Positions 137-42,584 of a stretch of DNA of 64,000 bases are shown piece after piece. Each line of letters begins with the position of its first letter. Positions within the stretch are counted from its first letter, which is position 1. The translations under genes and the position numbers were made by a program. The stretch comes from Chloroflexota bacterium (GTDB taxonomy: Bacteria > Chloroflexota > Chloroflexia > QHBQ01). The notes below the pieces were generated by a model. It saw nothing but the letters and a program-made list of their open reading frames with translations, was not told the DNA's origin and searched no databases. The stretch spans positions 1 to 64,000 of the forward strand of contig JAYUUN010000120.1 of the NCBI GenBank assembly GCA_043754535.1, written 5' to 3'.

Positions 137-1327
<1,191 letters not shown>

Positions 1328-1354
1328 GCGGCGGCCCAGCAACTTGGGGAAACG

Positions 1355-1873
1355 ATGCCTGTTTATCCTTACAAGGGCAAGTGGCCGCGCATCGCGCCTG
1401 ACGTTTATCTCGCGCCGACTGCCTGCGTGATTGGCGACGTGACGATTGGCGCAGGCAGCAGCGTGTGGTTTAATGCGGTGCTGCGCGCCGACAACGCCCC
1501 GATTGTGCTGGGCGCACGCTGCAATGTGCAGGACAATTGCACGATCCACACTGACGACGACCTCCCCGCTATCCTGGGCGATGGATGTTCGCTGGGCCAC
1601 GCAGCGGTAGTGCATGGGGCGCGGCTGGCGAATGATGTGCTGGTGGCGATGGGGGCAATCGTCCTCAGCGGAGCGACGGTGGGGGCGGAGAGCATCATTG
1701 CCGCCAACGCCGTGGTCACCGAGGGCAGACAAATCGCCGCCCGTTCGCTGGTTGTAGGCACCCCTGGCAAGGTAGCCCGCGAGGTGACGGAGGTCGAGAC
1801 CGCCCGCATCCACCTGACCAGCGACCACTACGTAGCCGAGGCACGTAACTACGCCGCCGAGAGCAAAGGCTAG
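1355..1873 (+). CDS. Gamma-carbonic anhydrase family hexapeptide-repeat protein (YrdA/PaaY/CaiE-like)
   Basis: IGDVTIG..SVWFNAVLRAD..NVQDNCTIH..GHAAVVHG motifs. Own GGGGA RBS before ATG 1355. The ORF track fuses it to the thiolase. Confidence 0.88.
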   Translation: MPVYPYKGKWPRIAPDVYLAPTACVIGDVTIGAGSSVWFNAVLRADNAPIVLGARCNVQDNCTIHTDDDLPAILGDGCSLGHAAVVHGARLANDVLVAMGAIVLSGATVGAESIIAANAVVTEGRQIAARSLVVGTPGKVAREVTEVETARIHLTSDHYVAEARNYAAESKG

Positions 1874-2679
1874 TTCTTCTCCTTGTACAAAGCAGGTGGC
1901 AGACTGATCTGGAACTCTACTCTAGGGCTGAGCAGCACCGAGTGGGGTTGCTGCGTCTCCTGGCGGCTAAGGATGCCAAGCCGTTCGAGCAGAGCGAAGC
2001 GCGCGTGCAGCAGCCTACCTGTGGTCAACTCCATCGCTGGGTGCCAGATGGTATAGCTGCCTAGCCTCCCGTCGCGCCGATAGAATACGCCCCGCACCGG
2101 GTTGGTCAGCACGTAACGTTGCTGGTCGAGCGAGTGGAAGCCAGGCAGCAAGCCCATTGCATGGCCCGTACCGACGAGAGCAATCTCTGCCGCTGCCCAT
2201 GCGCTCTGCGTCCGCACCTGATAGCGGGTGTAGCGTTGTTGGCTGGCCGAATAGGTGGTTGCGAACTGGTAGCGCGCCCGATACCAGGGTAGTTGCCAGG
2301 CATGATGCGCGAAGGCCACCGCCGCTGCACCCAGGGTGGTGCCGAAGAACCACGCCTGGTCTTCCCCCTGCTGGTCGGTTACATAGAGGCGGTAGTTGGT
2401 TTGGCCGAAGCGGAAGCGCAGCCAGGGCAGGCGGCTGAAACAGAAGTCCTGGTCGAGGAAGGGTACAACCGAGAGCAAGCCGTACTTGCGCCCATCCACC
2501 GTAAACGGCACAATCCCAAACTGGGGATTGACGTGGGGGCGCAACCGTTCTAGCGGCACCAGGTAGCTAATGATGGCGAAGTGGCGCAGGCTGGTGGTCA
2601 CGTCCAGCCAGCCCAGCGGTGGGCGTAGCAGGCGGGCAGCGAGTAGGGCGGGGTAATCGAGGGCTACTACTTCATCCAT
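1870..2679 (-). CDS. DUF2071/YqjF-like protein
   Basis: FAIISY.VP.ERLRP, LSVVPF, F.QTNYRLYV and W.LPW pattern. TGCTATAAT lies 6 nt before ATG 2679. Confidence 0.7.
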   Translation of the reverse strand: MDEVVALDYPALLAARLLRPPLGWLDVTTSLRHFAIISYLVPLERLRPHVNPQFGIVPFTVDGRKYGLLSVVPFLDQDFCFSRLPWLRFRFGQTNYRLYVTDQQGEDQAWFFGTTLGAAAVAFAHHAWQLPWYRARYQFATTYSASQQRYTRYQVRTQSAWAAAEIALVGTGHAMGLLPGFHSLDQQRYVLTNPVRGVFYRRDGRLGSYTIWHPAMELTTGRLLHARFALLERLGILSRQETQQPHSVLLSPRVEFQISLPPALYKEKN

Positions 2680-2710
2680 ACGCTTATTATAGCACAGTGC
2701 CACTCAGTGA

Positions 2711-2740
2711 CAAAAAAGAAGGGGCGCATCCGCACCCCAC
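2711..2740 (-). terminator. Intrinsic terminator after the small lipoprotein
   Basis: Minus strand GGGGTGC-GGAT-GCGCCCC followed by TTCTTTTTT. It lies inside the ORF-track extension beyond the TTA. Confidence 0.75.
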
Positions 2741-2762
2741 TTGCTCTACTCACGTAGGCAAC

Positions 2763-3023
2763 TAACGGGGTGGTGGAGGGTACATCGTTCGGCATGGACT
2801 CGCCAGTGTTCTCTGGCTGCGGTACGCCCTGAGTCGGCTGCTCTGTGGGCAAAGTTGCTGGCTTAACCCCCTTCGGGTTGGTCGTAGGCTGGCTGGCAGT
2901 GGTGGCGGACGGCTGGCGCACTGCCGTGGGGGTTGGGTTGCTCTCACCCCCACAGGCGGCCAGCAACAGGCTGGCGGTCAAGATTGCGCTGGCTACCCAG
3001 CCGACGTTCTCTAGCTTCTTCAA
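2763..3023 (-). CDS. Small Pro/Thr-rich lipoprotein; ends at in-frame TTA 2765-2763
   Basis: Basic N-terminus, hydrophobic stretch and lipobox LAAC-GG. TTG start with TAGGAG RBS. Terminator about 25 nt after the TTA. Confidence 0.7.
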
Positions 3024-3220: not shown

Positions 3221-3472
3221 TAACTCGTTGCGAGTGGTGGTGGCCCGTTGCAAGGCAGCGTGGCGGTGTTTGTAGGCAACCCCTACAACCCAGGCGAAGC
3301 TGGTAAATGCACCGATCATGGTGCAGCCAACCAGCCAGAACAACGTGCTGTCACCTCCAAGCAGTTCGCTGGTTAGCAGGGTGATCAACACCCCGCTGAT
3401 TGCCCCAACCAATGCCCCCACTGCGCTGAAGACAACAATAGCAGCAACCGTGTAGATTATCTGGTTCTTCAT
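3221..3472 (-). CDS. Small two-TM membrane protein; TTA at 3223-3221 (TAG at 3197 under the standard code)
   Basis: AAGGAGG RBS 5 nt before ATG 3472 and two hydrophobic helices. Confidence 0.6.
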
Positions 3473-15998: not shown

Positions 15999-17642
15999 AT
16001 GAGCAGAGAGCGCAAGGCGATTGGGCAGGTGACGGCGGCAGATAGCGAGAAGGGGGTGACGGTTCATCTGGGCCGCGAACTGCGGGTAGAGCAGTTGCGC
16101 CTCGGCCAGTTTGTGGTGGTAGAGAACCCAGAGGCGCAGTTCTTCGGCACCGTCAGTGGGCTGCGCCTGGGCGCGAACGACGCGGGCGTGACCAGCGACC
16201 CACCCGCGAGCGGCTCCCGATTGGTGCGCGAAGCCCTGGCGCGGGGGACGACCTTCGCCGAGTGTACCATCCACCTCGACCTTGAGGTGACGACCGGCGA
16301 ACGCCAGCCTGCCCGCACCATCCCCAGCCACTTTAGCAGCGTCGCCCTGGCTGACGAGACCGACGTGCAGGTGGTATTCGGCGATGAGCAGAAGGAGGGC
16401 TTCTTCGCGGTCGGTACCCCCTGCGATGCCAGCCGCAAGGAGACGGGTCAGCCAGTCTGCATTGACCTCCGCAAGTTTGTAGAGCGCAGCAACGGTATCT
16501 TTGGTCGCAGCGGCACGGGCAAGAGCATGTTGGCCCGCCTGCTACTCTGCGGGGTGATTGATCGCGGTCAAGCGGTCAACCTGATCTTCGATATGCACAA
16601 CGAGTACGCCACCTACCGCGAGACTGAGGCGGGGTTGAAGGTCAAGGGGCTACGCGACATCTTTGGCGCAAAGAAAATCAAGGTCTACACCCTCGATGCA
16701 GAGTCCAGCCGTCGCTCTGGTCGCTCGAACGACGGCGTGGTGTTGATCCCCTACAGTTCGCTTACTCTCGGCGACCTCGAAGCCCTGGAGGAGGAGATGC
16801 GCCTGAGCGGGCAGGCGGTGACCACTGGCACTCTTTTGCAGCGCAAGTGGGGCCGCGATTGGATCGGCAGGCTGGTGGCGGACGACCGCGACGCGAAGGA
16901 GATCAGCGAGGAGACGGGGGCTAACAGCGGCAGCATTGACGCGCTCCGCCGCAGCCTGCAAAAGTTGGAACGCTTTGACTTCATGGTACAGGGCAGCAAG
17001 GACGACTCTGGGATCAAGCGGATGATCGACGAACTCAAGCAGGGTAACAACGTGATTTTGGAGTTCGGCAGGCACGAGTCCACTCTCGCCTATATGCTGG
17101 TCTCCACCCTGGTCACCCGCCAGATACACGAGGCCTGGGTGGATCAGTCAGAGCGGTATGAGCGCAGCCAGAGCAAGGCGGACAAGCCGCAGCAGCTAGT
17201 AATTACCATCGAAGAAGCGCACAAGTTCCTCAACAACAAGGATACTATCTTCGGCACAATTGCGCGGGAGATGCGGAAGTACGCCGTGACCTTGCTGATC
17301 ATTGACCAGCGGCCTAGCAGCATTGACCCCGACGTGATGAGCCAACTTGGTACCCGCGTCACCGCCCTGCTCTCCGACGCACACGATATTGAGGCAGTCT
17401 TCACTGGGGTATATGGTGGCCGCCACCTGAAGGATACGCTGGCGACCCTGGACACCCGACAGGAGGCGTTGGTCTTTGGTCATGCGGTGCCTATGGCGGT
17501 GGCGATCCACACCCGCAGCTTCGACGACAAGTTCACCAATGGGCTGAATACACGGCTGGGCAGTGGCCGCGACCCCCGCACGGTCGGCTCGAACGGCAAC
17601 GGTAATGGCAGCCACGAGGCCGAGGAGGACTTGTTCGGCTAA
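15999..17642 (+). CDS. herA: HerA-family helicase/translocase ATPase
   Basis: N-terminal HAS barrel, Walker [17 protein letters not shown], Walker [16 protein letters not shown] and DQRPS. Confidence 0.9.
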
Positions 17643-18469
17643 GGCTGCCAGACCCACATATCGCGGATGTAGGCGACTTCGTAGCCATTGCGCTCTAGGT
17701 TGCGTTGGGCCAACGAGGCGGTAGGAGCCTGGGCGTAGATCGTTTGCGCCCCCAGGCTGATCGCCTCCTGGGTACGGCGGCGGACAAGGGCAGTATGCGC
17801 GCCCCTACCGCGCCACCCGCTTTCGGTGCAGGCAAAGTAGAGGCCAGCCCGTTCGCCAGCGTGTAGCAACACGCCCGCACCAATCGGGGTGTCGCCCAGC
17901 CAGGCAAAGTAGACGCGAGCGCAGGCTGCGATGCTCAAGCGCGGCATGGTCGCCATTAGCACCTTCTCTGCGCTGCCCTTCGCCCCCCAGCAGCCGCCGA
18001 GGATGTGGCCCAGCAGACGCGTTTCGCCCGCCACTAGCTTTCGCACCGCCAGGCCAGGGCGGTCGTGGATACGCCAGGTAGTGGTATCGGCCAGCAGCAG
18101 CACGCTGACCTGCCCTTGCAGGCGGAAGCCCCGTGCTTGCAGTAGCCTGCCGCTCGCTTCGTGGTCGCTGACAACCGGCACAGTGCAGCTAGTCTTCAGT
18201 TCGCGCAGCCGCTCCACCAGCGCGTCAAGCTGCCCCGCGCAGGCTGGCTGGCCTATGCCGAGGCCGAGTGCCGTGTTAAAGAGGGAGAGACCAGGCGCAA
18301 GCGTGCAACTATAGTGCCAGAGACCAGCCACCTGCGTCTGCCCCAGCCCCAGCCGCCCGGCCTCGCGCTCGCAGGCAGAGAAGATCGCGGCCATGTCCGC
18401 AGCGGCGGCGTTCTCTAGCTTGTATTGTATGGAGTCTGGACTTTGCAGAGCGGTAGTTTTGTCTTCCAT
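17639..18469 (-). CDS. GNAT-family acetyltransferase
   Basis: [11 protein letters not shown] and [14 protein letters not shown] motifs. Own GGAGGGG RBS before ATG 18469. Confidence 0.8.
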
Positions 18470-18482
18470 CCCTATCCCCTCC

Positions 18483-18516
18483 AAAAAGAGAGGGCTGTAA
18501 CTTGAAGCCACAGCCC
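18483..18516 (-). terminator. Intrinsic terminator after icd
   Basis: Minus strand GGGCTGTGGC-TTCAA-GTTACAGCCC followed by TCTCTTTTT. It sits inside the supposed icd-GNAT 'linker'. Confidence 0.75.
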
Positions 18517-18541
18517 GAATGCGAGAGCCTACCCTGAAGCC

Positions 18542-19621
18542 TAAGCGTTGCAGTTTGGCGATCAGCGCGTCGGCTACCTGCGCGGTGCCGACAGCGGTAG
18601 GGTCGTTGCGGTCAGGCTTCATGTCGTAGGTTACATCCTTGCCCTCGGCGATCAGTTCGCTCATCGCGGCTTCCAGGCGGCGGGCCGCGTGGTGTTCGCC
18701 CAGGTGACTGAGCATCATCACCCCGCTGAACATCTCGGCCAGGGGATTGACCCGGTTCTGGCCTGCGTAGTGCGGTGCGCTACCGTGCGTCGGCTCGAAG
18801 ATCGCCACGTCGGTGCCAATGTTCGCGCCAGGGGCCACCCCCAGGCCGCCGATCAGCCCCGCCCCCAGGTCGCTCAGGATGTCGCCGTAGAGGTTGGGCA
18901 GTACCAGCACATCATACTGCTCTGGCTTCTGCACCAGTTGCATACACATATTGTCCACGATGCGATCATCAAAGGCGATGTCGCTGTACTCCTTTGCCAC
19001 CCCCTGCGCAGTAGCGAGAAACAGGCCGTCAGTGGCCTTCATGATGTTTGCTTTATGCACAGCAGTGACCCGTTTGCGTCCATTCTTGCGCGCATACTCG
19101 AAGGCGAAGCGAACCACCCGCTCGCTGCCGAAGCTGGAAATCGGCTTGATGCTGATCGCCGAGTCGGGTCGGATGGTAGAGCCGTGAGCAGCGAACCAGG
19201 CAATCAACTCCCGCGCCTCTGGAGTGTCCTTGTTGTACTCTATCCCAGCGTACAAATCCTCGGTGTTCTCGCGCACTATCACCAGGTCAATGTCGGTGTA
19301 GCGCGAGCGCACTCCTTTGTAGCTCTTGCAGGGGCGCACACAGGCGTAGAGGTCAAGTGCCTTACGGAGCGCAACGTTGACGCTGCGAAAGCCCTTGCCA
19401 ACCGGGGTGGTAATCGGCCCCTTGATCGCTACTTTGGTGCGGCGCACGCTGTCCAACACCGCGTCGGGCAGTACCTGGCCTGTTTTTGCCAGCGCACCCA
19501 GACCCGCATCCTGAACATCCCAGTTGAATTGTACGCCAGTCGCTTCCAGCACGCGCCTGGTAGCCGCGCTGATCTCTGGGCCGGTGCCGTCACCAGGGAT
19601 AAAGGTAACATCATGAGCCAT
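18542..19621 (-). CDS. icd: Isocitrate dehydrogenase (NAD-type isocitrate/isopropylmalate family); ends at in-frame TTA 18544-18542
   Basis: [50 protein letters not shown] and EPTHGSAP motifs. 359 aa to the TTA. AAGGAG RBS. Confidence 0.9.
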
Positions 19622-19779
19622 TATGTTTGTATTGCTCCTTCTCTGCATTGAGTTTGGGGACGGGCCAATTATACTCTGCCCACCGCAGGCTTGCAAACTC
19701 TGTTATAATAAGCTGATCAACGGGCAAGACCCGCTTTTCTTCGCCACCCCACTCACCGCCCGAAAGGTAATGCTAGCCA

Positions 19780-21081
19780 ATGACGATCAAGATGCTGCAC
19801 ATATCCGATGTCCACCTCGGCGTAGAGAAGTATGGCAACCAGGGGGGGTTGACCGGCCAGAGTACTCGCCTCGACGACTTCCTGCGCTCGTTCGACCAGG
19901 CGATTGATGCAGCGATTGAGCGGGAGTGTGACCTGATGGTGTTTGCGGGGGACGCATTCAAGACCCGCGACCCCAACCCCACCGTGCAGCGCGAGTTCGC
20001 CCGTCGCATCATCCGTCTGGTGCAGCACGACATCCCTGCCTTCTTGCTCGTCGGCAACCACGACCTGCCCAATGCCTCAGCCCGCGCCCACACCCTGGAA
20101 ATCTACGACACGCTGAACATCCCCGGCGTGCAGGTGGCTCGCAAGCCGGGCATCTTCCACGTCGCTACCCGCCAGGGTATGGTGCAGGTAGTGGCGATCC
20201 CCTGGGTTACGCCCCACACCCTGCTGACTAAGGAAGAAAACCGCGCCCTGACGATCCAGGAACTGAACGGCTTGATGGCCGATAAGATCGAGGAGATCGT
20301 GGATACACGGGCGCAGGAGCTTGACCTTAACCGACCTGCTATCCTGACTATGCACAATAGCGTGCAGGGGGCTGCCTTCAGCAGCGAGCAGGATATCATG
20401 CTGGGCAATGACGTGATCGTGAGGGCAGACACGATCCGCAAATCTGCTTTCAGCTACGTCGCTCTCGGCCACATCCACAAGTACCAGTTGGTCTGGAACG
20501 AGCCGCTAGCCGTCTACTGCGGCAGCCTGGAGCGCATAGACTTCGGTGAGGAGAAGGAGGACAAGGGCTTCGTGATCGTCAGCTTCGACGAGCGTGAGCA
20601 GGCCGAGGTGGGCCAGAACAGGTGGCGGGCCAGCCACGAGTTCGTCAAGACCGCTGCCCGTCCCTTCCTGACGATCAAGGTGGATGGCAACGTAGCGCAG
20701 CCGACCGAGGCTGTCCTCTACGAGATCGGCAAGCAGGCGAAGAAGCTGCCAGGGGCGGTAGTCAAGGTGATCGTCCGCACCAGCACCGAGTTCGCTGCCG
20801 CTCTGCGCGAGGCCGACATCCGCCGCGCCCTGCACGAGGGGGGGGTTAGCTACATTGCTGCGGTAGTCAAGGACATGGATCGCGGGGAGCGGCTTCGCAG
20901 CAATGACCAGTTGGCCGAGCAGCTTTCACCACATGAGGCACTTGAGCGGTACCTGAAGCACCGCAAGACGGCTCCCGCCCGCGCTAGCACCCTCCTACGC
21001 TACGCGGACGAACTGATCGGGGTTGGTACGCCCACCACTAGCGGCGCAGATCATGGTGACCAGGATGGTACAGGCGAGTTA
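19780..21081 (+). CDS. sbcD: SbcD/Mre11 family metallophosphoesterase nuclease; ends at in-frame TTA 21079-21081
   Basis: HISDVHLG, FAGDAF, VGNHD, ALGHIH and YCGSLERIDFGEE..KGF motifs. Confidence 0.92.
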
Positions 21082-21434
21082 GCTAGCCAGCCGAGCAGCG
21101 TACACTCTCAGCACAGGGTGTTTTGCTTGCCGATCCGCTCTAATGCTTTGCTAATCTGCATGATGCAACCCGATCATGGGTCAACCTGTCACACTATTTA
21201 GTGGACTAGTAGCCAGGAGCAGAAGCGGTGGGTGCCGCGAGTGGGCAAGTGGTCGCTGCTATTGCCTTTATAGTGGCATGTGCTGTTGGCTACTTTATCT
21301 AGTACCTTCTTCCTAACTTTGCTGCTGACCAGCCAATTTTAATGTATTGCCCACCTACTTGTGCTATGCTGTAAGCAAGCCGCTCGGCAACGTCGCTGGG
21401 TGCAGCTACCGCTTCCACTAGAAAGATCACAACC

Positions 21435-22703
21435 ATGAACTATTATCTCCCGCTACAACGGCGTGCGGGCAAGGCGCAGCCCTTCATGTTCGCCACCGGC
21501 ATCGAAAACAGCTACCCTATGATCGTTGGTAGGGACGGCCAGCCCTTCCGGGTAGACGAGATGAGCAAGACTGACCATTACCGTCGCTGGCGCGAAGATT
21601 TCGCCTTGACCAGCGAGATGGGCATTGACTACCTCCGCTACGGCCCCCCTTACTATCAAACCCATGTTGCCCCAGGTGTCTACGACTGGACCTTCAGCGA
21701 TGAGGTATTCGCTGAGTTGCGGCGGCTCAACATCACCCCCATCGTTGACCTCTGCCACTTCGGGGTACCAGAATGGATAGGCAACTTCCAGAACCCCGCC
21801 TGGCCCGCCTACTTCGCTGAATATGCGCGTGCCTTTGCTGAACGCTACCCCTACCTGCACCTCTATACCCCTGTCAACGAAATCTACATCTGTGCCAAGT
21901 TCTCCGCCTTGCATGGCTGGTGGAATGAGCGCAAGAGCGACGACCGCAGCTTCGTTACTGCGCTCAAACATCTGGTGCAGGCCAACATCATGGCCGAAGA
22001 AGCGATCCTCGCCGTGCAACCAACCGCCTACTTCATCCAGAGCGAGTCGGTTGAATACTTCCACCCGACCACTCCTGACCCACACGTGCAGGAGCTTGCC
22101 GAGAAGCTGAACCAGATTCGCTTCCTCTCGCTCGACCTCTCCTACGGCTATCATGGGGTGGGCCAGATTGCCTACGACTACTTGCTCGAAAATGGGGTGA
22201 GCCGCAGCGAGTGCCAGTGGTTCATGGCTCATGGACGCGCCCTGCGCCCACACCAGATCATGGGGACGGACTACTACGCCAGCAACGAGCATATGGTGGA
22301 CATGGATGGGGTAATCAGCCCGGCGTGGGATACCTTCGGCTACTATCTGGTGACAAAGGACTACTATGACCGCTATCGGCTGCCGGTGATGCACACCGAA
22401 ACCAACTACTGCGATGTGGATCAAGCCCCCGGCTGGCTCTGGAAGCAGTGGCGCAACACAATGAAGCTACGTGCAGACGGGGTGCCAATGGTCGGCTTCA
22501 CCTGGTACAGCCTGATCGACCAGGTGGATTGGGATAGCGCACTAACCCACGATGACGGTCACGTGATCCCACTCGGCCTCTACGATATGGATCGCCAGTT
22601 GCGCCCAGTTGGAGTGGCCTATTGCAGGCTAATCGAACAGTGGCAGGCGATGCTGCCTGCTGAACACAGCCACCTTGACCTGCACGCGCCGCTGCCGCTG
22701 TTA
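21435..22703 (+). CDS. Glycoside hydrolase family 1-like beta-glycosidase; ends at in-frame TTA 22701-22703
   Basis: FATGIE, DHYRRWREDF, DLCHFGVP, TPVNE (acid/base), HTETN (nucleophile) and GFTWYSLIDQVDW motifs. Confidence 0.88.
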
Positions 22704-22714
22704 GCCGCTAGTGC

Positions 22715-22750
22715 AAAGCCGCTCCCCCAGCCTGTGGGGAGGGGCTTTTT
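22715..22750 (+). terminator. Intrinsic terminator after the GH1 gene
   Basis: AAAGCCGCTCCCC..GGGGAGGGGCTTTTT, 11 nt after the TTA. Confidence 0.75.
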
Positions 22751-22855
22751 GTGTCAAAACGGCACTGACAGGCTGGGTCACAGGTTGCCAAGCCCGCCCC
22801 TTTGTGCTAAGATCACATTGTCAGTTTGTCCACCCTGCGTCCAAAGGAGCAACCA

Positions 22856-24352
22856 TTGACATTGCCAGCAAAGAAAAGTGAAGGCAAGGCAGCCAGCCCG
22901 CTCAAGGTTTTGATCGTCGCCGCCGAGGTAGTACCGTTCGCCAAAGTTGGTGGTCTTGCCGATGTAGCCGGGGCGTTGCCACTCGCCTTGCAGAAGCTAG
23001 GGGTAGATGTGCGGGTGGTCATGCCCAAGTATGGCCGCATTGACAATGCCAAGTTCAACCTCCAGCCTGCCGTCCCCCCCTTCAGCGTGCCGATGAACGA
23101 GCAGATGGAGACGGTGGACATCGTGCAGGGAACGATTGGCGACCACATCCCTGTTTATCTTGTGCATAGCGAACGTTATTTCGACCGTGAAGGTATCTAC
23201 AGCTACCAGGATGATGACGAACGCTTCATTCTCTTTTGCCGCGCCGCCGTGGAGATGCTCAAGAAGCTGGATTGGTCGCCCGACGTGATCCACTGCAACG
23301 ACTGGCAGACCGCGATCATCCCCAACTGGATGAAGACCCTCTACCGCGATGACCCCTTCTTTGCAGGCACCGCCACCGTCTACACCATCCACAACCTGGC
23401 CTACCAGGGCATCTTCGGCCAGCGCGTGCTAGAGATCGCGGGCATTGCCGAGAAGGGCTTTGTCTACCCCCAAATACCCGACCTCGCCGGGGTGGTAGAC
23501 CTAATGGGTCGGGGCATCCTCTACGCCGATGTTGTTAGCACGGTCAGCGAGACCTATGCGAAGGAGATACTGACCCCCGAATATGGTGAGAAGCTCGATC
23601 CGCTGCTGCGCGAACGGCAGGATCGCCTCTTTGGCATCCTCAACGGCATTGACACCGAACTGATGGACCCTGCTACCGATAGCTACATCGCCGCCAACTT
23701 TGATGCATTGCACCAGACCGACCGGGCCGCCAACAAGCTCGACCTGCAACGCGACGGTAACCTCACTCCCGACCCTGATGTGCCGGTGATCGGCCTGATT
23801 TCGCGGCTGGCGAACCAGAAGGGCTTCGACATCCTCGCTCCGGTGGTTGATCCGCTGATGAACCTGCTCAACGTGCAACTGGTGCTGCTTGGCACGGGCG
23901 ACCAGTACTATCACGAGATGTTCGGCAAGATCGCCGCCCGCTACCCAGGCAAGGCCGCCGTCTTTCTTACCTTCAACGCCAGCCTTGCGCAGAAGATATA
24001 CGCGGGCAGCGACATCTTCCTCATGCCATCGCGCTTCGAACCGTGCGGCCTGGGCCAACTGATTGCTATGCGCTACGGCTCAATCCCAGTCGTGCGCCAG
24101 ACTGGTGGCCTCGCCGACACCGTGACCGACTTCGACCCGACCAGCGGCGAAGGCAACGGCTTCTCCTTCCAGCCCTACGAGCCAATGGCCCTCTACGCTA
24201 CTATCGTGCGCGCCCTCGAAAACTATCGCTACAAGGACACCTGGCGCAAGCTGATGACCCGCGATATGCAGGCCGACTACTCCTGGGCCACCAGCGCACG
24301 CAAGTACATAGACCTCTACACCAAAGCGGTGGCCTTCAAGAAGGCAAGCTGA
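22856..24352 (+). CDS. glgA: Glycogen synthase (GT5)
   Basis: PFAKVGGLADV, HCNDWQTA, TIHNLAYQG, SRLANQKG and PSRFEPCGL motifs. AAGGAG RBS before TTG 22856. Confidence 0.96.
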   Translation: MTLPAKKSEGKAASPLKVLIVAAEVVPFAKVGGLADVAGALPLALQKLGVDVRVVMPKYGRIDNAKFNLQPAVPPFSVPMNEQMETVDIVQGTIGDHIPVYLVHSERYFDREGIYSYQDDDERFILFCRAAVEMLKKLDWSPDVIHCNDWQTAIIPNWMKTLYRDDPFFAGTATVYTIHNLAYQGIFGQRVLEIAGIAEKGFVYPQIPDLAGVVDLMGRGILYADVVSTVSETYAKEILTPEYGEKLDPLLRERQDRLFGILNGIDTELMDPATDSYIAANFDALHQTDRAANKLDLQRDGNLTPDPDVPVIGLISRLANQKGFDILAPVVDPLMNLLNVQLVLLGTGDQYYHEMFGKIAARYPGKAAVFLTFNASLAQKIYAGSDIFLMPSRFEPCGLGQLIAMRYGSIPVVRQTGGLADTVTDFDPTSGEGNGFSFQPYEPMALYATIVRALENYRYKDTWRKLMTRDMQADYSWATSARKYIDLYTKAVAFKKAS

Positions 24353-24395
24353 AGCACCCAGCTTTGGCGATCAGGTGCTAGGGACAGGAGGGTGT

Positions 24396-25466
24396 ATGGA
24401 AGATAGTATCGTCAACCTGGAGGTGCTAGTTGCGGCCTTGCCCCGTGAGACGCGGGCGATAGCACGGCGCATCTACCAGATCAGCACCACAGTGGGCCAT
24501 ACTGTGCCACCGCCAGAGATGTACGCCTGGATTGAGCGGCAGTTTGGCAGCCTGGGCCGGGTGGAGGAGCAGCATATCGTCAAAGTAACAAACGTGGTTA
24601 CCTTTGAGGGTGCGCTGTTCAACGAGTTGCGGGCCAGCCGCCCAATGGGGGCGCGGACGAGCAGAGATCTGGAGGCACGAATCGTGGCGGGCCGGGCGGA
24701 CGACACCTTCGGTGACCCGCTGACCGGCACCCCCGCCGACGTGTTTGGTCGCCTCAAGGGTCAGCATAGCATCACCGCCAGTAACGTCGCCAAGTACGAC
24801 GGCTTCCACGGCGTGCTGATCTTCGACGAGTACAACCCGCTCGCTTTCACCCGCGAGAGTATTGCAGATGCGCTAGCGACTGCCCAACGTTGGGGAGCAA
24901 TGGCAATGGCTGCCGACGCTCGCGCCCGCTACTTCTTCTTTATGTGGAACTGTCTCTGGAGAAGCGGAGCCAGCATCCTGCATGGTCACACTCAGATGAC
25001 CGTGACCAGCGACTTCCCTTACGCGAAGGTAGAGCAATTGCGCCGCGCTGCCCACCAGTACCGCCAACAGCACGGGCAGAGTTACTTTGCCGACCTTATA
25101 AGCATCCACACTGCCTTGGGGCTGGCTAAGGCTTTGGCAGGGGGGATCACAGCCTTCGCCTCGCTTACCCCAGTCAAGGAGAAGGAGGTCTGGCTGCTCG
25201 GTGCTGCCCTGGACGAGAACATGGCCGCCGCCATCTACCGCGTCCTCAGCGTCTACCGCAGCCTGGGGGTCAGCAGTTTCAACGTAGCAGCCTATCTGCC
25301 CCCCAACCAACTGGTGGATGGTGACACGTGGACAGACTTTCCCGCCATCGTCCGCCTGGTAGACCGGGGCGATCCGCTCAACCAGACTGCCGACATCGGC
25401 GCAATGGAACTGTTCGCCCAGAGCGTAGTCTCCTCTGACCCCTTCAAGCTAGCCACTCGGCTTTGA
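24396..25466 (+). CDS. GalT/HIT-superfamily nucleotidyltransferase-like protein
   Basis: WNCLWRSGASILHGHTQ matches the GalT N...GAS..HxHxQ signature. AGGAGG RBS. Confidence 0.65.
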   Translation: MEDSIVNLEVLVAALPRETRAIARRIYQISTTVGHTVPPPEMYAWIERQFGSLGRVEEQHIVKVTNVVTFEGALFNELRASRPMGARTSRDLEARIVAGRADDTFGDPLTGTPADVFGRLKGQHSITASNVAKYDGFHGVLIFDEYNPLAFTRESIADALATAQRWGAMAMAADARARYFFFMWNCLWRSGASILHGHTQMTVTSDFPYAKVEQLRRAAHQYRQQHGQSYFADLISIHTALGLAKALAGGITAFASLTPVKEKEVWLLGAALDENMAAAIYRVLSVYRSLGVSSFNVAAYLPPNQLVDGDTWTDFPAIVRLVDRGDPLNQTADIGAMELFAQSVVSSDPFKLATRL

Positions 25467-25507
25467 AGTGACCAGCGAAAGAGCAGCCCACTTTGCGCCA
25501 CGTCCTG

Positions 25508-25537
25508 TTGACATAATGAGGCAAGCTGCGCTATAAT
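25508..25537 (+). promoter_or_regulatory. Sigma-70-type promoter
   Basis: TTGACA-N18-TATAAT upstream of the SPFH gene. Confidence 0.7.
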
Positions 25538-25603
25538 GATCACAATCTTGGAAAGATACTGGCTGGGTAGAACGGCCAGGGTTGCTTAGAGGGGGTTGAG
25601 GTT

Positions 25604-26575
25604 ATGGACAATCTGCCAGGCTGCCTGGTTGTTTTGCTGATCGCTGTCGTCCTACTTGCGGTCGTCTACTCGGTGCTAAAGAGTATCGTGATCGTCAAGG
25701 AAGGCACGGTAGTGCTGACCGAACTGGACGGACGCTTCTTCCGGATGCTCAAGCCGGGTCGCCATTATATGTTGCCGATGATGGAGACAGTGCGCGGTGA
25801 GGCGATCAAGCTGCACCAGGTTCACTTTGACATCCCCGAAGTGGTACTTAACACACGCAACTTCGCACCCGTCACCTTTGGTATGAGTGTCCACTTCCAG
25901 ATCATGCGCGACCCCAGTAGCCCCTACCTGATCCCCTCCAAAGAGGCTGTTTATCGGGCCATCTATACGGTAGAGGATTGGCAGAAGATAACCCACGAGG
26001 AGGCTTTGGCGGCTGTCACTGAGATCGTAGCCGGTCTGGACTTTAAGGCTAGCATTATCGACTCGGACAACTGGATACACGAGCTATCGGAGCGGGTGCG
26101 TAGCGAACTGAACGACCGGGCCAACCACTGGGGGGTCTATGTGGACGACGTAAACCTGATCAACGTCAAGTTCAGCGATGCCACCCGCGAAATCTCCAGC
26201 TTTGAGGGCAAGGCCAAGCGGCAGGCTCGCCTGCGCGAGATCGAGGCAGAGAGTGAGCGGCAGAACGCCCAAATCCTCGGCCTCAACACCCCGGAGCAAC
26301 TGATCCAGTGGCACTACATCGAGACGATGAAGGAAGTGGTGAAGAACAACCCGCAGGCGCGCATCATCTTTGCCAGCCCAGAGATGATGACTAGCCAGGT
26401 ACACAACGAAGATATGCGGCTACTGGGCGATGGGCAGAGTGGTCAGACGCAGATGTTGCCCGCAGGCGAGAGCTTCCGTGCCGCTAACCAGCCCCGCCCT
26501 ACCCCCGCGCAGGTGGTGGCTGATGATCGCCCCGCTCCTGCCCGCACTGCCCGCAGCCGGGAAGTTGAGGAGTTA
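25604..26575 (+). CDS. SPFH/band-7 domain membrane protein; ends at in-frame TTA 26573-26575
   Basis: N-terminal TM, G.F.R.LKPG.H, WGVYVDDVNL and a coiled region. The TTA lies 4 nt before the next gene's start. Confidence 0.8.
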
Positions 26576-26579
26576 GGCC

Positions 26580-26948
26580 TTGCCCCTTGCAGGCTTCTGG
26601 GAGGCAGTGCGGGGGCTGGTGCGACAGGTACCGCCGGGCAAGGTCGCTAGCTACGGTCAGATCGCTGCCTACCTCGGCTACCCGCGCCACGCCCGCGTGG
26701 TCGGTTGGGTGCTGCACGACTTGCCTGCTGGCACAGATGTACCCTGGCAGCGGATCATCAATGCAGCGGGCCGCATCTCTACCTCTTGCGAAACGCACTC
26801 TGCGGACTTGCAGCGGCTGTTGCTTAAAGAAGAAGGCGTAGAGTTTGATCAGCGTGGCTACATAGACCTGGGCCGCTTCCGTTGGGAAGGGCCACCTATC
26901 TTTCCACCCGCCGCAGCCGCTGACGATGAGACAACAAAAACCTCCTGA
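26580..26948 (+). CDS. Alkyltransferase-like protein (ATL, MGMT family)
   Basis: VPPGKVASYGQIA, ARVVGW and PWQRIINAAG (Trp replaces the PCHR Cys). TTG start with GAGGAG RBS. Confidence 0.88.
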   Translation: MPLAGFWEAVRGLVRQVPPGKVASYGQIAAYLGYPRHARVVGWVLHDLPAGTDVPWQRIINAAGRISTSCETHSADLQRLLLKEEGVEFDQRGYIDLGRFRWEGPPIFPPAAAADDETTKTS

Positions 26949-26975
26949 GCCAAACGGTTCAGGAGGTTTCGTTTC
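26936..26975. terminator. Bidirectional terminator between ATL and rplA
   Basis: AAAAACCTCCTGAGCC..GGTTCAGGAGGTTTCGTTT. Confidence 0.75.
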
Positions 26976-26989
26976 AGGGTCGTTGCTGA

Positions 26990-27718
26990 CTAGCTAGATG
27001 CTCCAGTGGAAGCGGCCAGGGTGGGGGTCACGTCCAGCGGAATGCCTGGACCCATCGTGCTGGCAACGGTGATGCTCCGTACGTAGGCACCTTTTGCGCC
27101 AGTTGGCTTTGCCTTGTTGACCGCATCCACGATAGCAAGGATGTTTTCGGTAATCTGGCTGTTGTCAAAGCTGATTTTGCCCACGCCGACGTGGATCAGG
27201 CCAGTCTTGTCGTTGCGAAACTCGATCTTACCACGCCGCACTTCGCCGATCACCCGTGGTAGGTCGCCAGGGGTCTGCACGATGGTGCCGCTCTTGGGCG
27301 AGGGCATTAGACCGCGCCGACCGAGAATCTTGCCCAGCTTACCAACCTTGCCCATCATGTCTGCCGTGGCAACGGCAATATCAAAGTCCAGGAAGTCTTC
27401 CTTCTCGATGCGGGTGATCAACTCGTCGCCACCCACTACGTCGGCTCCAGCTTCGCGGGCGATGCGCTCGCCTTCGCCCTGGGTGAAGACCAGGATACGA
27501 ACCTTCTTGCCGGTGCCATGTGGCAGTACCGCTGTGCCACGCACAAGCTGGTCAGCATGGCGAGGGTCAATGCCGAGGCGCATATGTACTTCAATGGTGC
27601 CATCAAACTTGGTGAACGAGGTCTTCTTCAGCAGTTCAGCCGCTTCCTGAATGGTATAGAGCTTGTCTTCTTCAAGCATCTGGGCGGCAGCGTTATACTT
27701 CTTGCCGTGCTTTGCCAT
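26990..27718 (-). CDS. rplA: 50S ribosomal protein L1
   Basis: [29 protein letters not shown] and STMGPG motifs. Confidence 0.98.
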
Positions 27719-27730
27719 GGTCTTCTCCTT

Positions 27731-27770
27731 GTGTGGTTATGGTAGCGGGCTGGTTGCCAGCCCTCCCACT
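27731..27770 (-). promoter_or_regulatory. Probable L1 autoregulatory RNA site in front of rplA
   Basis: Minus strand GTGGGAG-GGCTGG-CAA-CCAGCC-CGCTACCATAACCAC just before the RBS, resembling the GUGGGAG..CCGCUA..ACCAC rplA leader of Gram-positive bacteria. Confidence 0.65.
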
Positions 27771-27822
27771 GATGGCGCATACTCTGCGCCAATAATGCTA
27801 ACTTGCTTCGCTGGGAGGCTAG

Positions 27823-28248
27823 TTAGCGGGTAACATCAATACCCATGCTGCGGGCCGTGCCTTCGATGATGCGCTCAGCAGCGTCTACGTCGTAGGCGTT
27901 GAGGTCCTTCATCTTGGTTTCGGCGATCTCCCGCAACTGCTTGCGGCTGATACGGCCTACCTTCTCCAGGTTAGGCTTACCCGAACCATGTTCTACTTTG
28001 GCGGCCTTACGCAGCAGGTCGGCCACCGGCGGCATCTTGGTGATGAAGCTGTATGAGCGATCCTCGTAGATCGTGATTTCGACTGGGATGATCGAACCGA
28101 TGTTGGCGGCAGTGCGCTCGTTGTACTCCTTGACGAAGTTGACGAGGGCAATGCCGTAACCACCGAGGGTGGAGCCGACCGGGGGGGCCGGGGTTGCCTT
28201 GCCAGCGTTCAGTTGCAGCTTGACGACAGCTCTTACTTTCTTAGACAC
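27823..28248 (-). CDS. rplK: 50S ribosomal protein L11
   Basis: [24 protein letters not shown] and GTARSMG motifs. GTG start with AAGGAG RBS. Confidence 0.98.
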
Positions 28249-28360
28249 GTGATATTGCTCCTTTGGCGCATAGGGTGACGCGCCACACGCTTGAGATTTA
28301 ACATGACGTGTGCGGCCCGGTGGACCGCACACTCCCCTTTGTTAGAACGGTTAGAACTGG

Positions 28361-29002
28361 TTACTTGCCTCCGCGCACGGTGTGGGCAGAGCCGCCCTCA
28401 TCACCACTGTAGGGATCGTTGCGCTTGACTTGCAGGAAGTCGAGCGTGGTGGGGGTCTCGCGTCCGAAGATGGAGATCAGCACGCGCACCTGCTGCTTGT
28501 CGGTCATCACTGCGTCAATCGTGCCTTCCATGTCGGCGAAAGGTCCATCAATGACCTTGACCGACATACCGGGGGCGAAGGCAGTCTTCACCTTCGGCGC
28601 AGCCTCGGCCTTGATCGAGTTGAGGATTTTGTCTACCTCTGGTTGCTCCAGCGGCACTGGCTTGTTGCCCATGCCGACAAAGCTGGTCACACCTGGGGTG
28701 TTACGCACCACATACCACGACTCGTCGCTCATCACCATCTCAACCATCACATAGCCAGGGTAGACTTTGCGCTGCACACTACGGCGTTGCCCGTCCTTGA
28801 TCTCTACCTCGTTTTCAGTCGGCACTACCACCTGGAAGATACGGTCGGTCATGTCAAGAGCCTGGATGCGGTGTTCAAGGTTCTTCTTGACCTTGTTTTC
28901 GTAGCCAGAATAGGTGTGGATCACAAACCAGTGCCGCCCAGATTCGGGCCGGTCGTCACCCCTGGGGGGCTGAAAGGTAGATTTGTAAGATTGCGAGTCC
29001 AT
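28361..29002 (-). CDS. nusG: Transcription termination/antitermination factor NusG
   Basis: WFVIHTYSGYENKV, YPGYV, VRNTPGVTSFVG and a KOW domain (DGPF, IFGRETP). Confidence 0.98.
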   Translation of the reverse strand: MDSQSYKSTFQPPRGDDRPESGRHWFVIHTYSGYENKVKKNLEHRIQALDMTDRIFQVVVPTENEVEIKDGQRRSVQRKVYPGYVMVEMVMSDESWYVVRNTPGVTSFVGMGNKPVPLEQPEVDKILNSIKAEAAPKVKTAFAPGMSVKVIDGPFADMEGTIDAVMTDKQQVRVLISIFGRETPTTLDFLQVKRNDPYSGDEGGSAHTVRGGK

Positions 29003-29028
29003 AGCGGGGGGCTTCTTTCGGCGAGGGG

Positions 29029-29307
29029 TTACTTACCGAACTGGCTGATGATCAGGGTGAGACCGCCATCGATCAATGAAAGCACGATGCCGACAGCGGC
29101 AGAAATGCCCATCACCACGATGGTCAGGTTGCGGGTTTCCTGTGGGCTGGGCCAGGTGATCTTCTGAATCTCAGATAGAACATCACGCCAACGGTCGCCA
29201 ATACGCGACCAGACGCTCTTGACTTTCTGCTCTGGCTGCTTGGGCTGATCTGGCTGCCGCTGCTGGCGCACGCTGTTGACAGGTTTTGGTGTGTCCACTG
29301 TAGCCAT
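29029..29307 (-). CDS. secE: Preprotein translocase subunit SecE
   Basis: EIQKITWPS motif plus a single TM. Canonical position between tRNA-Trp and nusG. Confidence 0.92.
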   Translation of the reverse strand: MATVDTPKPVNSVRQQRQPDQPKQPEQKVKSVWSRIGDRWRDVLSEIQKITWPSPQETRNLTIVVMGISAAVGIVLSLIDGGLTLIISQFGK

Positions 29308-29386
29308 CCTCGGTTTATACTCCTTGCTTGAGGTGAAAACGTAGGGGGCAGCAAGGTGCGCCCCCTACGACAACGGATATAGTGCC

Positions 29387-29462
29387 TGGCACGCCTGGAG
29401 GGACTCGAACCCCCAACCTACGGTTTTGGAGACCGCCACTCTGCCAATTGAGCTACAGGCGT
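29387..29462 (-). tRNA. trnW: tRNA-Trp (CCA)
   Basis: Cloverleaf ACGCCTG/CAGGCGT, anticodon loop CT-CCA-AA, GGTTCGAGTCC, encoded CCA end. Confidence 0.96.
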
Positions 29463-39489: not shown

Positions 39490-39537
39490 TTTGGTAAGGT
39501 TTTGGTAAGGTTATGTTGGCTATTTAGGTGGTATAAT
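39490..39537 (+). promoter_or_regulatory. 11-bp tandem direct repeat plus extended -10 promoter
   Basis: TTTGGTAAGGT twice (39490-39511), then TGGTATAAT (TATAAT at 39532-39537). Confidence 0.6.
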
Positions 39538-39599
39538 AGTGATGGCTTATTGTAACGTCATCAACCCTTACGTGCCTTATCTAGGAGGTGGATAGAGAG

Positions 39600-41828
39600 A
39601 TGTATAGTCGAAACCGTCGTACCCTCAACCTGGCCTTGAGCCTTGCGCTGCTGTTGAGCGCAGTAGCCTTTGCCCTCAGTGGGGGCGGATTGGCCGCCGC
39701 CAGCCCGCCGACCCTCAGCCCAGCGGCAGCAGTCCAGCCCGCCAGCGGGGTTGGCCCCAACCTGATCTCGCTGACCAGTGGTAGCATTGCCGCTAGCGAC
39801 CCCAGCTACACCCGCACCTTTGCGTTCGCGCAGGGTAATACCTGCTTTGTGAGCAGTGCCTTCACGCACTACAAGTTCTACGAGGTGCAGTCGGCTAGCG
39901 CACAGACGGTCGTCGCCAGCCTTGCCAGCCTCGGCGGCAGTGCCAATTACGACAGCTTCGTAAGCATTTACCAGGCAGCGGGAGGGGGGCAGATAGCCAA
40001 CTTCGTCCCCTCTGGCTGCACCAACGCTATTACTGCCAGCGACGATGCCTATACTACACCTCAGTCGCAGGTAGTAGCTAGCCTTGCTGCTGGATACTTC
40101 TATGTGGTCATTGCTGGGTATGACAGTAGTGCTGTCGGCAACTACACCCTCGCCCTGGCAACCGAGTTCGGCCTACAAACCAACCTGCCTGGCAGTCTGC
40201 TGGCTAGCAGCCCTACCTACAACCGTACCGTCGCATTCCCGCAGGGTGGTGTCTGTACGCTTGGTACCAACAATCCACACTATATCGCTTACGAGTTCCA
40301 GGTAAATAGCCCCCAGGCCGTGGTTGCCAGCCTGATCAGTCTTGGTGGGGCCGCCAGTTTCAATAGCGTCCTGACCGTCTACCAGGCGGCTGGCGGGGCG
40401 CGCATCAACAGCTTTGTCCCTGCCGGTTGCACTAACGCCATTGCTGCTAGCACTATCAGCTATGGCGTGTTCAAGCCAGAAGTAGCCGCTACAGTTGTTG
40501 CTGGCTACTTCTACGTGGTGGTTGCAGGCTCCACCGCCACGGACATTGGCAGCTACACCCTGGCGGTCACTGCGGCTTCGTCCGTCTCGATCACCTCCAC
40601 GCCAACCAACACCCCAACTGTAACCAACACCCCGACCATCACCCGCACGCCAACCAACACGCCAACCGCCACCAACACTGGCACTGCGACCAGCACCAGC
40701 ACTGCAACTGGCACCAGCACTGCAACTGGCACCAGCACCGGCACCGCCACCCGGACGGCCACTGGCACCAGCACTAGTACCACTACCAGCACGCCAACTG
40801 TAACTGGCACGCCACCGACCAGCACGCCAACTGTAACTGGCACGCCGCCGACCAGCACCAGCACAGCGACGGCAACTGCTGTCGTCAGCAACACGGCAAC
40901 CGCCACTGCCACCAGCATCGTCAGCAACACTGCGACCGTGACTGGCACCCCGCCGACTAGCACGCCAACTGTGACTGGCACACCACCGACCAGCACCGCC
41001 ACCGCTAGTGCCACCAGCATCGTCAGCAATACAGCGACCGTGACTGGCACCCCGCCGACCAGCACGCCAACTGTGACTGGTACGCCACCGACCAGCACCG
41101 CCACCGCCAGTGCCACTGGTGTCGTCAGTAGCACGGCGACTGGCGCAGCCGCCACTGCCACCCGCACTGCTACTAGCGCAGTTGGCACTGGCACGGCCAC
41201 CAGCATAGCCACTACTGCTACTCCTGCGCCGCCAACCCTCACCAGCGTGTCTGCGACTGAGACCCCCTGTGGTATCAGCTTCACTGACGTGCCGCCTGGC
41301 TACCTGTTCTACAGTGACATCGAGTTCCTTGCCTGCCGCGGCATCGTCAATGGCGTGGGCAACGGCCTCTATCTGCCTGGCAACTTTACCACTCGCGGCC
41401 AGTTTGCCAAGATCGTCACCATTGCCTTTAGCGTTCCCTCCTTTACACCGAGCAGCGGCCAAACCTTCAGCGATGTGCCGCCGAGTAACTTCTTCTACCC
41501 CTACGTCGAGGCTGCGGCTCACTCTGGCTACCTGTTTGGCTACGCCAATGGCAGCTTCCGCCCCGACTTGCGGATTAACCGCGTAGAGACGGCGGTAGTG
41601 ATCCAGCGCGTCCGCAACTACCCTGCCTTCATCCCTGCCACACCGAGCTTCCTGGACATTCAGCCCGGCGACTTTGGCTACGTCGATGTAGAAACCCTTG
41701 TCCACGAGGGGATCATCAATGGTGGGCGTTGTGCCAGCGGTAACGGCCTCTGCTTCCGCCGCAACGACTTCATCCGCCGCGACGAGATGGCGAAGATCGT
41801 CCGTCGCTCTATCGAAACCCTGCCCTAA
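39600..41828 (+). CDS. Secreted SLH-domain surface protein with two PPC-like beta-sandwich repeats and a Thr-rich linker
   Basis: Signal peptide; duplicated ~135-aa domain ending GYFYVV..G.YTLA; C-terminal [24 protein letters not shown] motifs. Confidence 0.85.
40590..41265 (+). repeat. Coding tandem repeats ([11 protein letters not shown] units; ~102-nt higher-order repeat)
   Basis: Recurrent ACGCCAACTGT(A/G)ACTGGCAC.CC.CCGACCAGC units. Confidence 0.85.
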
Positions 41829-41846
41829 GCCTATCGCCCAACGCAC

Positions 41847-41878
41847 AAAAGGGGTCAGCCGCAAGGTTGACCCCTTCT
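41847..41878. terminator. Bidirectional terminator
   Basis: AAAAGGGGTCAGCC-GCAA-GGTTGACCCCTTCT. Confidence 0.8.
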
Positions 41879-41957
41879 GCTTGCTTGCTGAACAAGAGGC
41901 AAGCCTTAGGTTGGACTACATCTGACCAGCCACTTCTTTGCACGCGAGGGTTGTGGC

Positions 41958-42584
41958 TAACTGCCGTGGTACTGTGATGTTGATTGGCTGGTTGAGGCGG
42001 CTGATATCTAGCTGGCGGCGGCTACTCTGCTTGCCACTGTGCGTGTCAACCACGATCCGCCGGGGGATGTTGTCGGCGGCCAGCCAATATGTGGTGTAGA
42101 TGCTAGAGTCGCCACTACCCTGCCGCTCGCCATAGCCGCGACAGGTTACGCCGTCAAGCGTCTTGCTGCCAAGATCGCTGCTGCCGCCTATTTCGTGGGC
42201 CTGGGCTTGCTGTGCGCTGAGGTTGACTATAGCAAAGCTAGCAAGGATGCTCCTACCACCGCCACCCACGCGCACCCAGCCTCCACCATCGTTGCTGTAG
42301 AGGTCGTCGCCAACTATCACCTGCTGGAAGCTACGCCCCTGCTTGCTGAAGGTAAACTGCGCCCGTTGGTCCGCCACATCTACATAACCCTCAAGGCTAG
42401 TAACCTCGTGTTCGTTAGCCTGCTGGCCCTCACTGCTCTGCACCACATAGAAGCTACTAACCCTCATGCTGCGAGCTGTCTGCGTAGGGCCGTTGGTCAC
42501 TGCGCCGCCAGCCGCCTGCTCGCAACCTACACTGAGGGCGGCGCAAAGTAGAACCGCAAGCAGTATGACAATCCGCTTAAACAT
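41958..42584 (-). CDS. LppX/LprAFG-like lipoprotein; ends at in-frame TTA 41960-41958
   Basis: Lipobox-like SVGC, IVGDDLY, TLDGVTC..Y, YWLAAD and the typical terminal NQPINITVP. AAGGAG RBS before ATG 42584. Confidence 0.7.

Follow-up and report, generated by a model that had tools for sequence, protein, structure and literature searches.

TTA codons closing genes in the window

The window analyzed here is a stretch of 64,000 nucleotides (C120:1-64000) from the genome of a bacterium of the Chloroflexota, class Chloroflexia (G000; 3.87 Mb, 132 contigs, 61.4% GC, 89% complete), and its subject is a set of open reading frames (ORFs) that end in TTA. Together with G001 to G004, this genome makes up the family f1, in which G000 and G001 form genus g1, and G002 to G004 genus g2; beyond G000, we examined about 0.65 Mb of G001, 0.63 Mb of G002, 0.02 Mb of G003 and 0.14 Mb of G004. 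The homologues of RF2 bear Chloroflexota labels, and the placement in Chloroflexia follows from a genome of that class whose RF2 is 99% identical to one named Ca. Chlorohelix at its source. A sequence-only reading of the window had listed nine terminal TTA codons, eight of them followed by G, and had proposed either a four-base stop or a slip of the ribosome onto a UAG in the +1 frame. All nine codons were present in their contexts, with TTA-G at eight sites and TTA-T at the APH-family gene alone, although this last site lies outside the span 1325..41960 that had been given for the set. Genes were called using a codon-likelihood model of our own that gave TTA a score of zero. Eight of the nine sites close called genes (8 of the 51 genes of the window), and the site at 2765(-) was not among the kept calls. 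The features are the following:

137..1327 (+), thiolase of 396 aa, a gene call with Thiolase_N at residues 7-262 and Thiolase_C at 270-393 (122 of 123 positions)
1325-1327 (+), terminal TTA of the thiolase in the context GCT TTA G, codon 397, Thiolase_C ending at residue 393
1355..1873 (+), hexapeptide-repeat gene with its own ATG, starting 27 nt past the thiolase TTA; Hexapep/LbH matches at 421-528 of the table-11 fusion
2763..2765 (-), CCG TTA G closing an open frame of 107 codons whose N-terminus is lipoprotein-like; no Pfam match, the weakest of the nine
3221..3472 (-), membrane protein of 83 aa with GAG TTA G at 3223-3221; gene call, no Pfam match
18542..19621 (-), isocitrate/isopropylmalate dehydrogenase-family protein of 359 aa with CGC TTA G (18544); Iso_dh at 5-352 (347 of 348 positions), TTA being codon 360
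19780..21081 (+), metallophosphoesterase of 433 aa with GAG TTA G (21079); Pfam match and gene call
21435..22703 (+), glycosyl hydrolase family 1-like protein of 422 aa with CTG TTA G (22701); Pfam match and gene call
25604..26575 (+), SPFH/Band 7 protein of 323 aa with GAG TTA G (26573); Pfam match and gene call
41958..42467 (-), gene of 169 aa with CAG TTA G (41960); gene call, no Pfam match
59075..60091 (+), APH-family phosphotransferase of 338 aa with GGG TTA T (60089-60091); Pfam match and gene call

Under translation table 11, the thiolase and the unrelated hexapeptide-repeat gene, whose product we take to be gamma-carbonic-anhydrase-like, are merged into one ORF. The dehydrogenase is likewise merged with an unrelated GNAT-like gene at 17639-18469, and a Shine-Dalgarno-like word lies at the split. 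The G002 orthologue of the metallophosphoesterase ends in register, at TTA T. Read on the opposite strand, the three bases of the APH TTA are exactly the TAA stop of a convergent gene at 60089-61471(-). The sequence-only reading had considered a sequencing artefact unlikely, and we agree: identical letters stand in contigs from four sequencing runs, each belonging to a different outside study. This comparison spanned window positions 18000-27000; among the rows listed, the four TTA sites were unchanged, and there was a single indel, at 19743 in one run.

TTA as a terminal codon across the genome

TTA closed 251 of the 2989 genes called in G000, next to TAG (1141), TGA (896) and TAA (701), and these 251 genes were spread over 88 of the 132 contigs. 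When G000 was read with table 11, 245 in-frame TTAs were counted in 221 of 2894 genes; 214 of them stood no more than 80 codons from the stop, and 9 no more than 80 from the start. The gene-end share was thus 0.87 for TTA; the second-ranking codon, AGA, reached 0.34, and the value over all codons was 0.22. The coding score was +0.12 to +0.16 before TTA and fell to -0.20 to -0.40 after it, whichever base stood at position +4; after normal stops it was -0.28. Inside the cores of long ORFs, TTA was found at 0.11 per 1000 codons. In a homology test on G000, the long open frames contained 4296 TTA sites; 69 of these had a homologue among the G001 and G002 proteins, and the TTA lay within the aligned homologous block at 1 of these 69 testable sites. 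The same test on sister-family DNA gave 763 TTA sites and 88 matches, with 48 TTAs inside the block and 25 facing leucine.

Protein domains and termini were analyzed at the same sites. Among the 251 genes, 76 were picked by density on 20 regions and extended by up to 60 codons past the TTA; 57 of them had Pfam matches, and the best stretches listed stopped before the TTA in 55. In the remaining two, one stretch crossed the TTA by 10 residues and the other was the next gene. Domains also ended ahead of TTA-T and TTA-C sites. For the arginyl-tRNA synthetase (ArgRS) of G000, the DALR domain reaches position 117 of 117 at residue 687, directly ahead of the TTA at codon 688. This terminus reads Met-TTA in G000 and G001, and the same Met followed by a standard stop in 20 of 20 others including G002 to G004 (three unpublished genomes were left out of this comparison and one genome had no match).

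The surroundings of terminal TTA resembled those of a working stop codon. Of 152 codirectional cases, 18 had the TTA overlapping the next ATG as TTA-TG; of 90 convergent ones, 14 had the exact TTA/TAA antiparallel overlap with the opposite gene. Immediate back-up stops followed TTA in 9 of 251 cases, no more commonly than other stops. An apparent excess of such back-up stops in a small sample of g2 was gone in G002 (17/53 vs. 117/417, p = 0.52). Across quintiles of codon score, TTA endings dropped from 11.8% to 4.3%. The window holds a group of highly expressed genes at 26990-29462, rplA-, rplK-, nusG- and secE-like with a tRNA-Trp (the protein labels are our assumption from N-terminal motifs), as well as tRNA-Tyr/Thr at 42651-42820; the rplA/rplK/nusG/secE-like genes terminate in TAA or TAG, which is consistent with TTA being scarcer in high-score genes.

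Reading TTA as a stop split 18 table-11 ORFs, one of which was an antisense artefact. The 1213-aa table-11 ORF at C107:21316-24957 (+) corresponds to three genes parted by two TTAs, a short-chain dehydrogenase, a PmbA/TldD-family gene and a third. At C1:32852-37573 (-), an in-frame TTA-T follows codon 783, ahead of a GH35 domain at 801, and the GT-C/GH35 fusion there is most likely an artefact of table 11.

Extent of the probable UUA stop in family f1

Core TTA was almost absent from the relatives of G000 within the family: 4 in 81,585 codons of G001, 0 in 40,113 of G002 and 1 in 24,570 of G004. Five sister genomes of 57-62% GC used it at 1.7-4.6 per 1000. In the 421 orthologue pairs of G000 and G001 that end in register, TTA stood opposite TTA in 21 and opposite a standard stop in 5. 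In G002, TTA closed 53 of the 470 genes called in 629 kb, and where the G000 orthologue ended in register its stop was TAA (5), TAG (5), TGA (2) or TTA (1). A reverse search of 888, 1171 and 332 frames from G001 to G004 returned no TTA in aligned blocks, a search that is blind to sites where every examined orthologue also has TTA. The predicted UUA-stop code maps to family f1, and the four genomes with informative samples share it. DNA near-identical to G000 is present in freshwater and glacier metagenomes; 16S rRNA was not found assembled in any of G000 to G004.

Since UUA sits where homologues stop, as seen for ArgRS, in the orthologue swaps and at the Pfam domain ends, it almost certainly terminates translation as a triplet in this family. 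It is scarcely conceivable that TTA is instead a very rare leucine codon whose pattern arises from gene calling or assembly. GC-rich genomes do use little TTA (4 in 15,645 core codons of G006, at 70% GC), and one internal TTA of G000 aligns with leucine. However, rarity cannot put 87% of TTAs at gene ends or directly after the terminal Met of ArgRS, nor can it place TTA between the two members of the thiolase/LbH, TldD/PmbA-type and other gene pairs. The identical letters in the runs of other studies also speak against an artefact, and core TTA was present in every one of 57 RF2-flanking loci that came from other bacteria and had a GC of up to 63%.

The base after TTA and the four-base hypothesis

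We then tabulated the base that follows the 251 terminal TTAs of G000, a check that the sequence-only reading had put forward. G followed in 137 cases (54.6%), T in 58, C in 32 and A in 24. The frequency of G exceeded that after TAA and TGA (615/1597; Fisher p = 2e-6), and G followed 30.5% of 10,669 intergenic TTAs. The strong preference for G that had been proposed from the window is therefore a real bias in genus g1, but it is not a requirement, because 114 of 251 terminal TTAs lack the G. The eight of nine in the window were an upward fluctuation even given the rate of 54.6% (p = 0.036). In G001, 19 of 31 TTAs were followed by G; in G002 the figure was 15 of 53, which is like TAA and TGA of the same genome (p = 0.87) and differs from G000 (p = 8e-4). 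We read the G at +4 as a preference of context that is confined to genus g1.

A UUAG four-base stop, or a stall at UUA with a slip to a UAG read by RF1, is highly improbable as the main mechanism. The enrichment of G in both g1 genomes is what such a mechanism would produce, and A or G together followed TTA in 161 of 251 cases vs. 919 of 1597 after TAA/TGA (p = 0.054). However, 90 of 251 terminal TTAs have T or C at +4 and lie a median of about 20 codons from the next stop in the +1 frame, and TTA-A, which would offer a +1 UAA, is depleted (24/251 vs. 304/1597, p = 2e-4). The coding score falls for every +4 base, and domains end at TTA-T and TTA-C too. At orthologous TTA stops of G000 and G001, the +4 base was kept in 16 of 21 and changed in 5 of 21, a lower conservation than after TAA (63/73), TAG (133/146) or TGA (120/131). 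The sites without a +1 stop, the depletion of TTA-A, the five changes and the absence of the bias in G002 thus argue that the stop is the triplet UUA, and the outcome of the tabulation favours an ordinary triplet stop whose context bias is particular to the genus. An accessory +1 route may operate at TTAG sites. After TTA, the order of the +4 bases (G>T>C,A) is close to that after TGA and unlike that after TAG (C 47%), which hints at RF2 as the reader.

Leucine tRNAs and rare internal TTA

A tRNA-Leu(UAA) was not found in G000 among 44 Rfam tRNAs, ARAGORN calls and a pattern search, nor in G001. In G002 and G004 the gene lies upstream of cysS, a place where G000 has none. An ARAGORN run at a low threshold that allowed introns returned nothing but noise. 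A strict pattern had initially suggested that this tRNA was missing from all five genomes of the family; looser patterns found copies in g2, at the following positions (Rfam):

G002:C96:14753-14834, tRNA-Leu(UAA)
G003:C600:1379-1461, tRNA-Leu(UAA)
G004:C292:1497-1580, tRNA-Leu(UAA)

All three copies have a C31.A39 mismatch that yields a 9-nt anticodon loop, with a compensatory stem change in G003, and position 31-39 is paired in all 19 other tRNA-Leu(UAA) copies. A tRNA-Leu(CAA) was found in G000 and in G002 to G004, and TTG is an ordinary codon in G000 (13.8 per 1000). TCA also stays sense (1.9 per 1000), with a tRNA-Ser(UGA) present. In g2, an in-frame TTA lies at the same place of a signal-peptide-like hydrophobic stretch in G002:C9 and G004:C100, and another in a membrane-type stretch of a gene restricted to G002 (G002:C2). 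These internal TTAs share the context TTA-AT, and such sites are candidates for leucine read-through, so that a rare leucine reading is possible in g2.

That UUA is merely unassigned in f1, the ribosome stalling for want of a tRNA and the chain being freed by tmRNA or by an Arf-like helper with RF2, is very unlikely. The missing tRNA-Leu(UAA) of G000, the presence of tmRNA in the same genome and the fall of TTA endings with codon score, as for a weaker stop, fit this possibility. On the other hand, decay tags would then be added to ArgRS and to the products of about 8% of genes, and the TTA-TG coupling implies normal termination. An ArfA match was not found in G000, nor was a third gene of the RF-1 family (a rescue or extra class-I factor such as ArfB or PrfH), in an assembly that is 89% complete and by searches that reach known factors only. 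In addition, G002 to G004 stop at TTA despite keeping the tRNA, and RF2 is changed at near-invariant sites.

A further reading, which we consider possible but doubtful, is that f1 is caught in a sense-to-stop reassignment in progress, with UUA having a dual, possibly regulatory, meaning in g2 and no tRNA in g1. The sister families would represent the starting state, reading UUA as leucine with a normal tRNA and RF2. In g2, the altered RF2 would stop at UUA and the tRNA with the opened stem would still insert leucine at a few UUA codons whose context is weak, TTA-AT, like the signal-peptide site common to G002 and G004; in g1, tRNA-Leu(UAA) would have been lost.

Other observations were made on the tRNA set. 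An ARAGORN call of tRNA-Pyl(cta) at G000:C31:4032-4124 is not an Rfam tRNA, adjoins a CRISPR array and was discarded as a false positive. A tRNA-Sec lies at G000:C84:51665-51759. The CGN arginine codons of G000 are served by the anticodons GCG, UCG and CCG, an ACG tRNA not being found in the tRNA set. Among the relatives, G009 has 70 tRNA matches, with a dense, array-like cluster at about 1281000-1283700 of G009:C2. Dozens of copies of a short intergenic repeat word (GAGTTTTGAG-like) are present in g2, and none in g1. Five CRISPR arrays are present in G000 (C27, C31, C50, C62 and C112; 67 spacers), and the spacers of one of the five had no match to cultured phages. Terminase_6N was not found in G000 to G004.

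Release factors of family f1

Genes of the RF-1 family in G000 are two only, RF1 and RF2. In RF2 (residues in E. coli numbering, taken from chain 1ml5_Z), the recognition loop of all five f1 genomes is GQHRMVRISPYDSQHRRQTSF. D143 is replaced by E or A and L201 by M in 5/5, and V198Q, F207Y and H214Q are further changes. Elsewhere, D143 is D in 96/97, 113/113, 81/81 and 141/145 cluster representatives, the sole exception among the 97 being a misaligned fragment, and L201 is L in 97/97 and 149/150. We take D143, by the Thermus thermophilus structures, to be a residue of helix alpha-5 and part of the network that reads base 2; a text source for this role was not found in the literature searched. 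In the available text of PMC3472500, the codon-recognition domain is described as helix alpha-5 plus the tripeptide, and according to that of PMC5776981, RF2 requires base 2 to carry an amino or a carbonyl group and contacts this base via S205. The altered f1 pocket (D143E/A and L201M with V198Q, F207Y and H214Q) could let S205 and its neighbours accept a U at the second position.

Single changes were considered as the cause and rejected. SPY in place of SPF occurs in six non-f1 genomes that use core TTA at 1.3-2.6 per 1000, and is described as common in the available part of PMC3472500. For H214Q, the motif RRQTSF gave at least 120 matches in GTDB, mostly Actinomycetota among the matches listed, and was carried by 74 of 150 diverse RF2s. 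As for L201M alone, M stands at this position in five metagenome loci, and TTA use is heavy in all four that were tested. A TTA at the prfB frameshift site was also discarded, since the usual CTT TGA C is present in G001 to G004 and in a near-identical metagenome contig. Viral contigs searched for RF2 yielded two copies, both ordinary.

RF2 probably reads UUA. A triplet UUA stop read by an altered RF1, or by RF1 and RF2 together, is unlikely, even if the f1 RF1 shows many differences from 26 kin, including residues after PxT-E and after GGQ, and a modified mtRF1a has been proposed for the UUA/UUG stops of algal mitochondria (available text of PMC12574857). The f1 RF1 keeps its PxT motif, the RF1-type organellar cases stop at UUG as well as UUA, which does not fit the sense use of TTG found here, and the +4 profile is TGA-like rather than TAG-like.

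Several points weigh against a UUA stop read by RF2. Within the protein, S205 and S216 are kept in 5/5 f1 genomes; V198Q, F207Y, H214Q and L201M can each be found on its own in users of TTA as leucine or in unrelated organisms; and the role given above for D143 is one that we assume. The divergence of the f1 RF1 counts on the same side. Concerning the tRNA, its absence from G000 and G001 is weak evidence, because the pattern finds it in 19 of 36 non-f1 relatives (a tally including four unpublished genomes, two with a match), and the copies of G002 to G004 score 53-54 bits with Rfam. The TTA shared by G002:C9 and G004:C100 stands inside a gene, one Pfam stretch crosses its TTA by 10 residues, and the internal TTA of G000 at C103:85234-85683 (-), the sole one in an aligned block, faces a TTG leucine codon in G001; it may be a recent nonsense change. 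As for sampling, the core of G003 (0 TTA in 2,998 codons) is too small to judge, the high-GC relatives G006, G008 and G016 are uninformative on core TTA, and the gene calls rely on our own codon model.

Overall, it is very likely, judging from these genomes, that UUA changed its meaning in f1 from leucine to a simple triplet stop, beside UAA, UAG and UGA, with RF2 as the probable reader. The sequences show UUA cleared from coding regions, standing where homologues stop, exchanged with standard stops and involved in stop/start coupling.

Comparison with known systems

Precedents in print for a UUA stop were found for mitochondria and plastids only. No bacterial UUA stop was found in the literature searched, which did not extend to subscription journals and bioRxiv supplements; TTA, UUA or Chloroflex did not occur in PMC13695967, in 10.64898/2026.05.03.722492 or in the available text of 10.64898/2026.04.02.715157. 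Large prokaryotic code screens are blind to sense-to-stop changes: Codetta is unable to infer stops (PMC9825746, available part), and the same holds for KACI and Codetta in the part of 10.64898/2026.04.02.715157 at hand, where a CGA stop is raised, and left untested, for two archaeal assemblies. If true, the f1 RF2 would be a natural variant with widened second-base specificity, bearing on how pyrimidines at position 2 are rejected, and the family would bear on whether new stops arise via an ambiguous or an unassigned stage. Annotation of f1 with table 11 would be wrong for about 8-11% of genes, giving false C-terminal tails and false fusions.

The variants known from prokaryotes are UGA to Trp or Gly and the sense-to-sense changes of CGG, CGA, AGG and ACA (10.64898/2026.04.02.715157, available text). 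Like the f1 case, they are confined to particular lineages and were detected in uncultured genomes, but they are stop-to-sense or sense-to-sense.

The closest parallels are organellar. According to the available text of PMC12574857, UUA is a stop in Labyrinthulea mitochondria and in peDinoflagellate plastids (there UUA/UCA) via a change at 'Ser204' of RF2, UUA/UUG stops arise via mtRF1a, and the plastid case is called the first sense-to-stop change outside mitochondria. As in these organelles, UUA would have passed in f1 from leucine to a stop beside the three standard ones, with an RF2-type reader proposed. Unlike them, f1 presents a bacterial chromosome with about 3000 genes in which TCA remains sense, and its RF2 keeps S205 and S216 and changes at D143 and L201, a comparison in which the two numberings are not mapped exactly. 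The Thraustochytrium-type UUA-stop code is NCBI table 23. Its codon-level features were found in f1: UUA is all but gone as an internal sense codon, UUA stands at the stops of homologues, UAA, UAG and UGA remain stops and UUG remains leucine. The cognate tRNA-Leu(UAA), which such a code would lack, was not found in G000 or G001 but is present in G002 to G004. UUA also ends genes in the mitochondria of Marsupiomonadales and Pseudoscourfieldia (Pycnococcus) in the available texts of PMC12574857 and PMC6821328, the latter describing UCA/UCG and UUR stops in algal mitochondria. In those algae UUG is a stop as well and mtRF1a is modified, whereas f1 has TTG as leucine with a tRNA-Leu(CAA) and an RF1 with its PxT kept.

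A bacterial parallel of another kind is Streptomyces, GC-rich like f1 and with UUA as its rarest codon; one tRNA could there control a small number of genes, and the same may apply in g2. In Streptomyces, regulation by rare UUA codons depends on bldA, and UUA is there a leucine codon inside genes; in f1, by contrast, TTA is almost wholly terminal.

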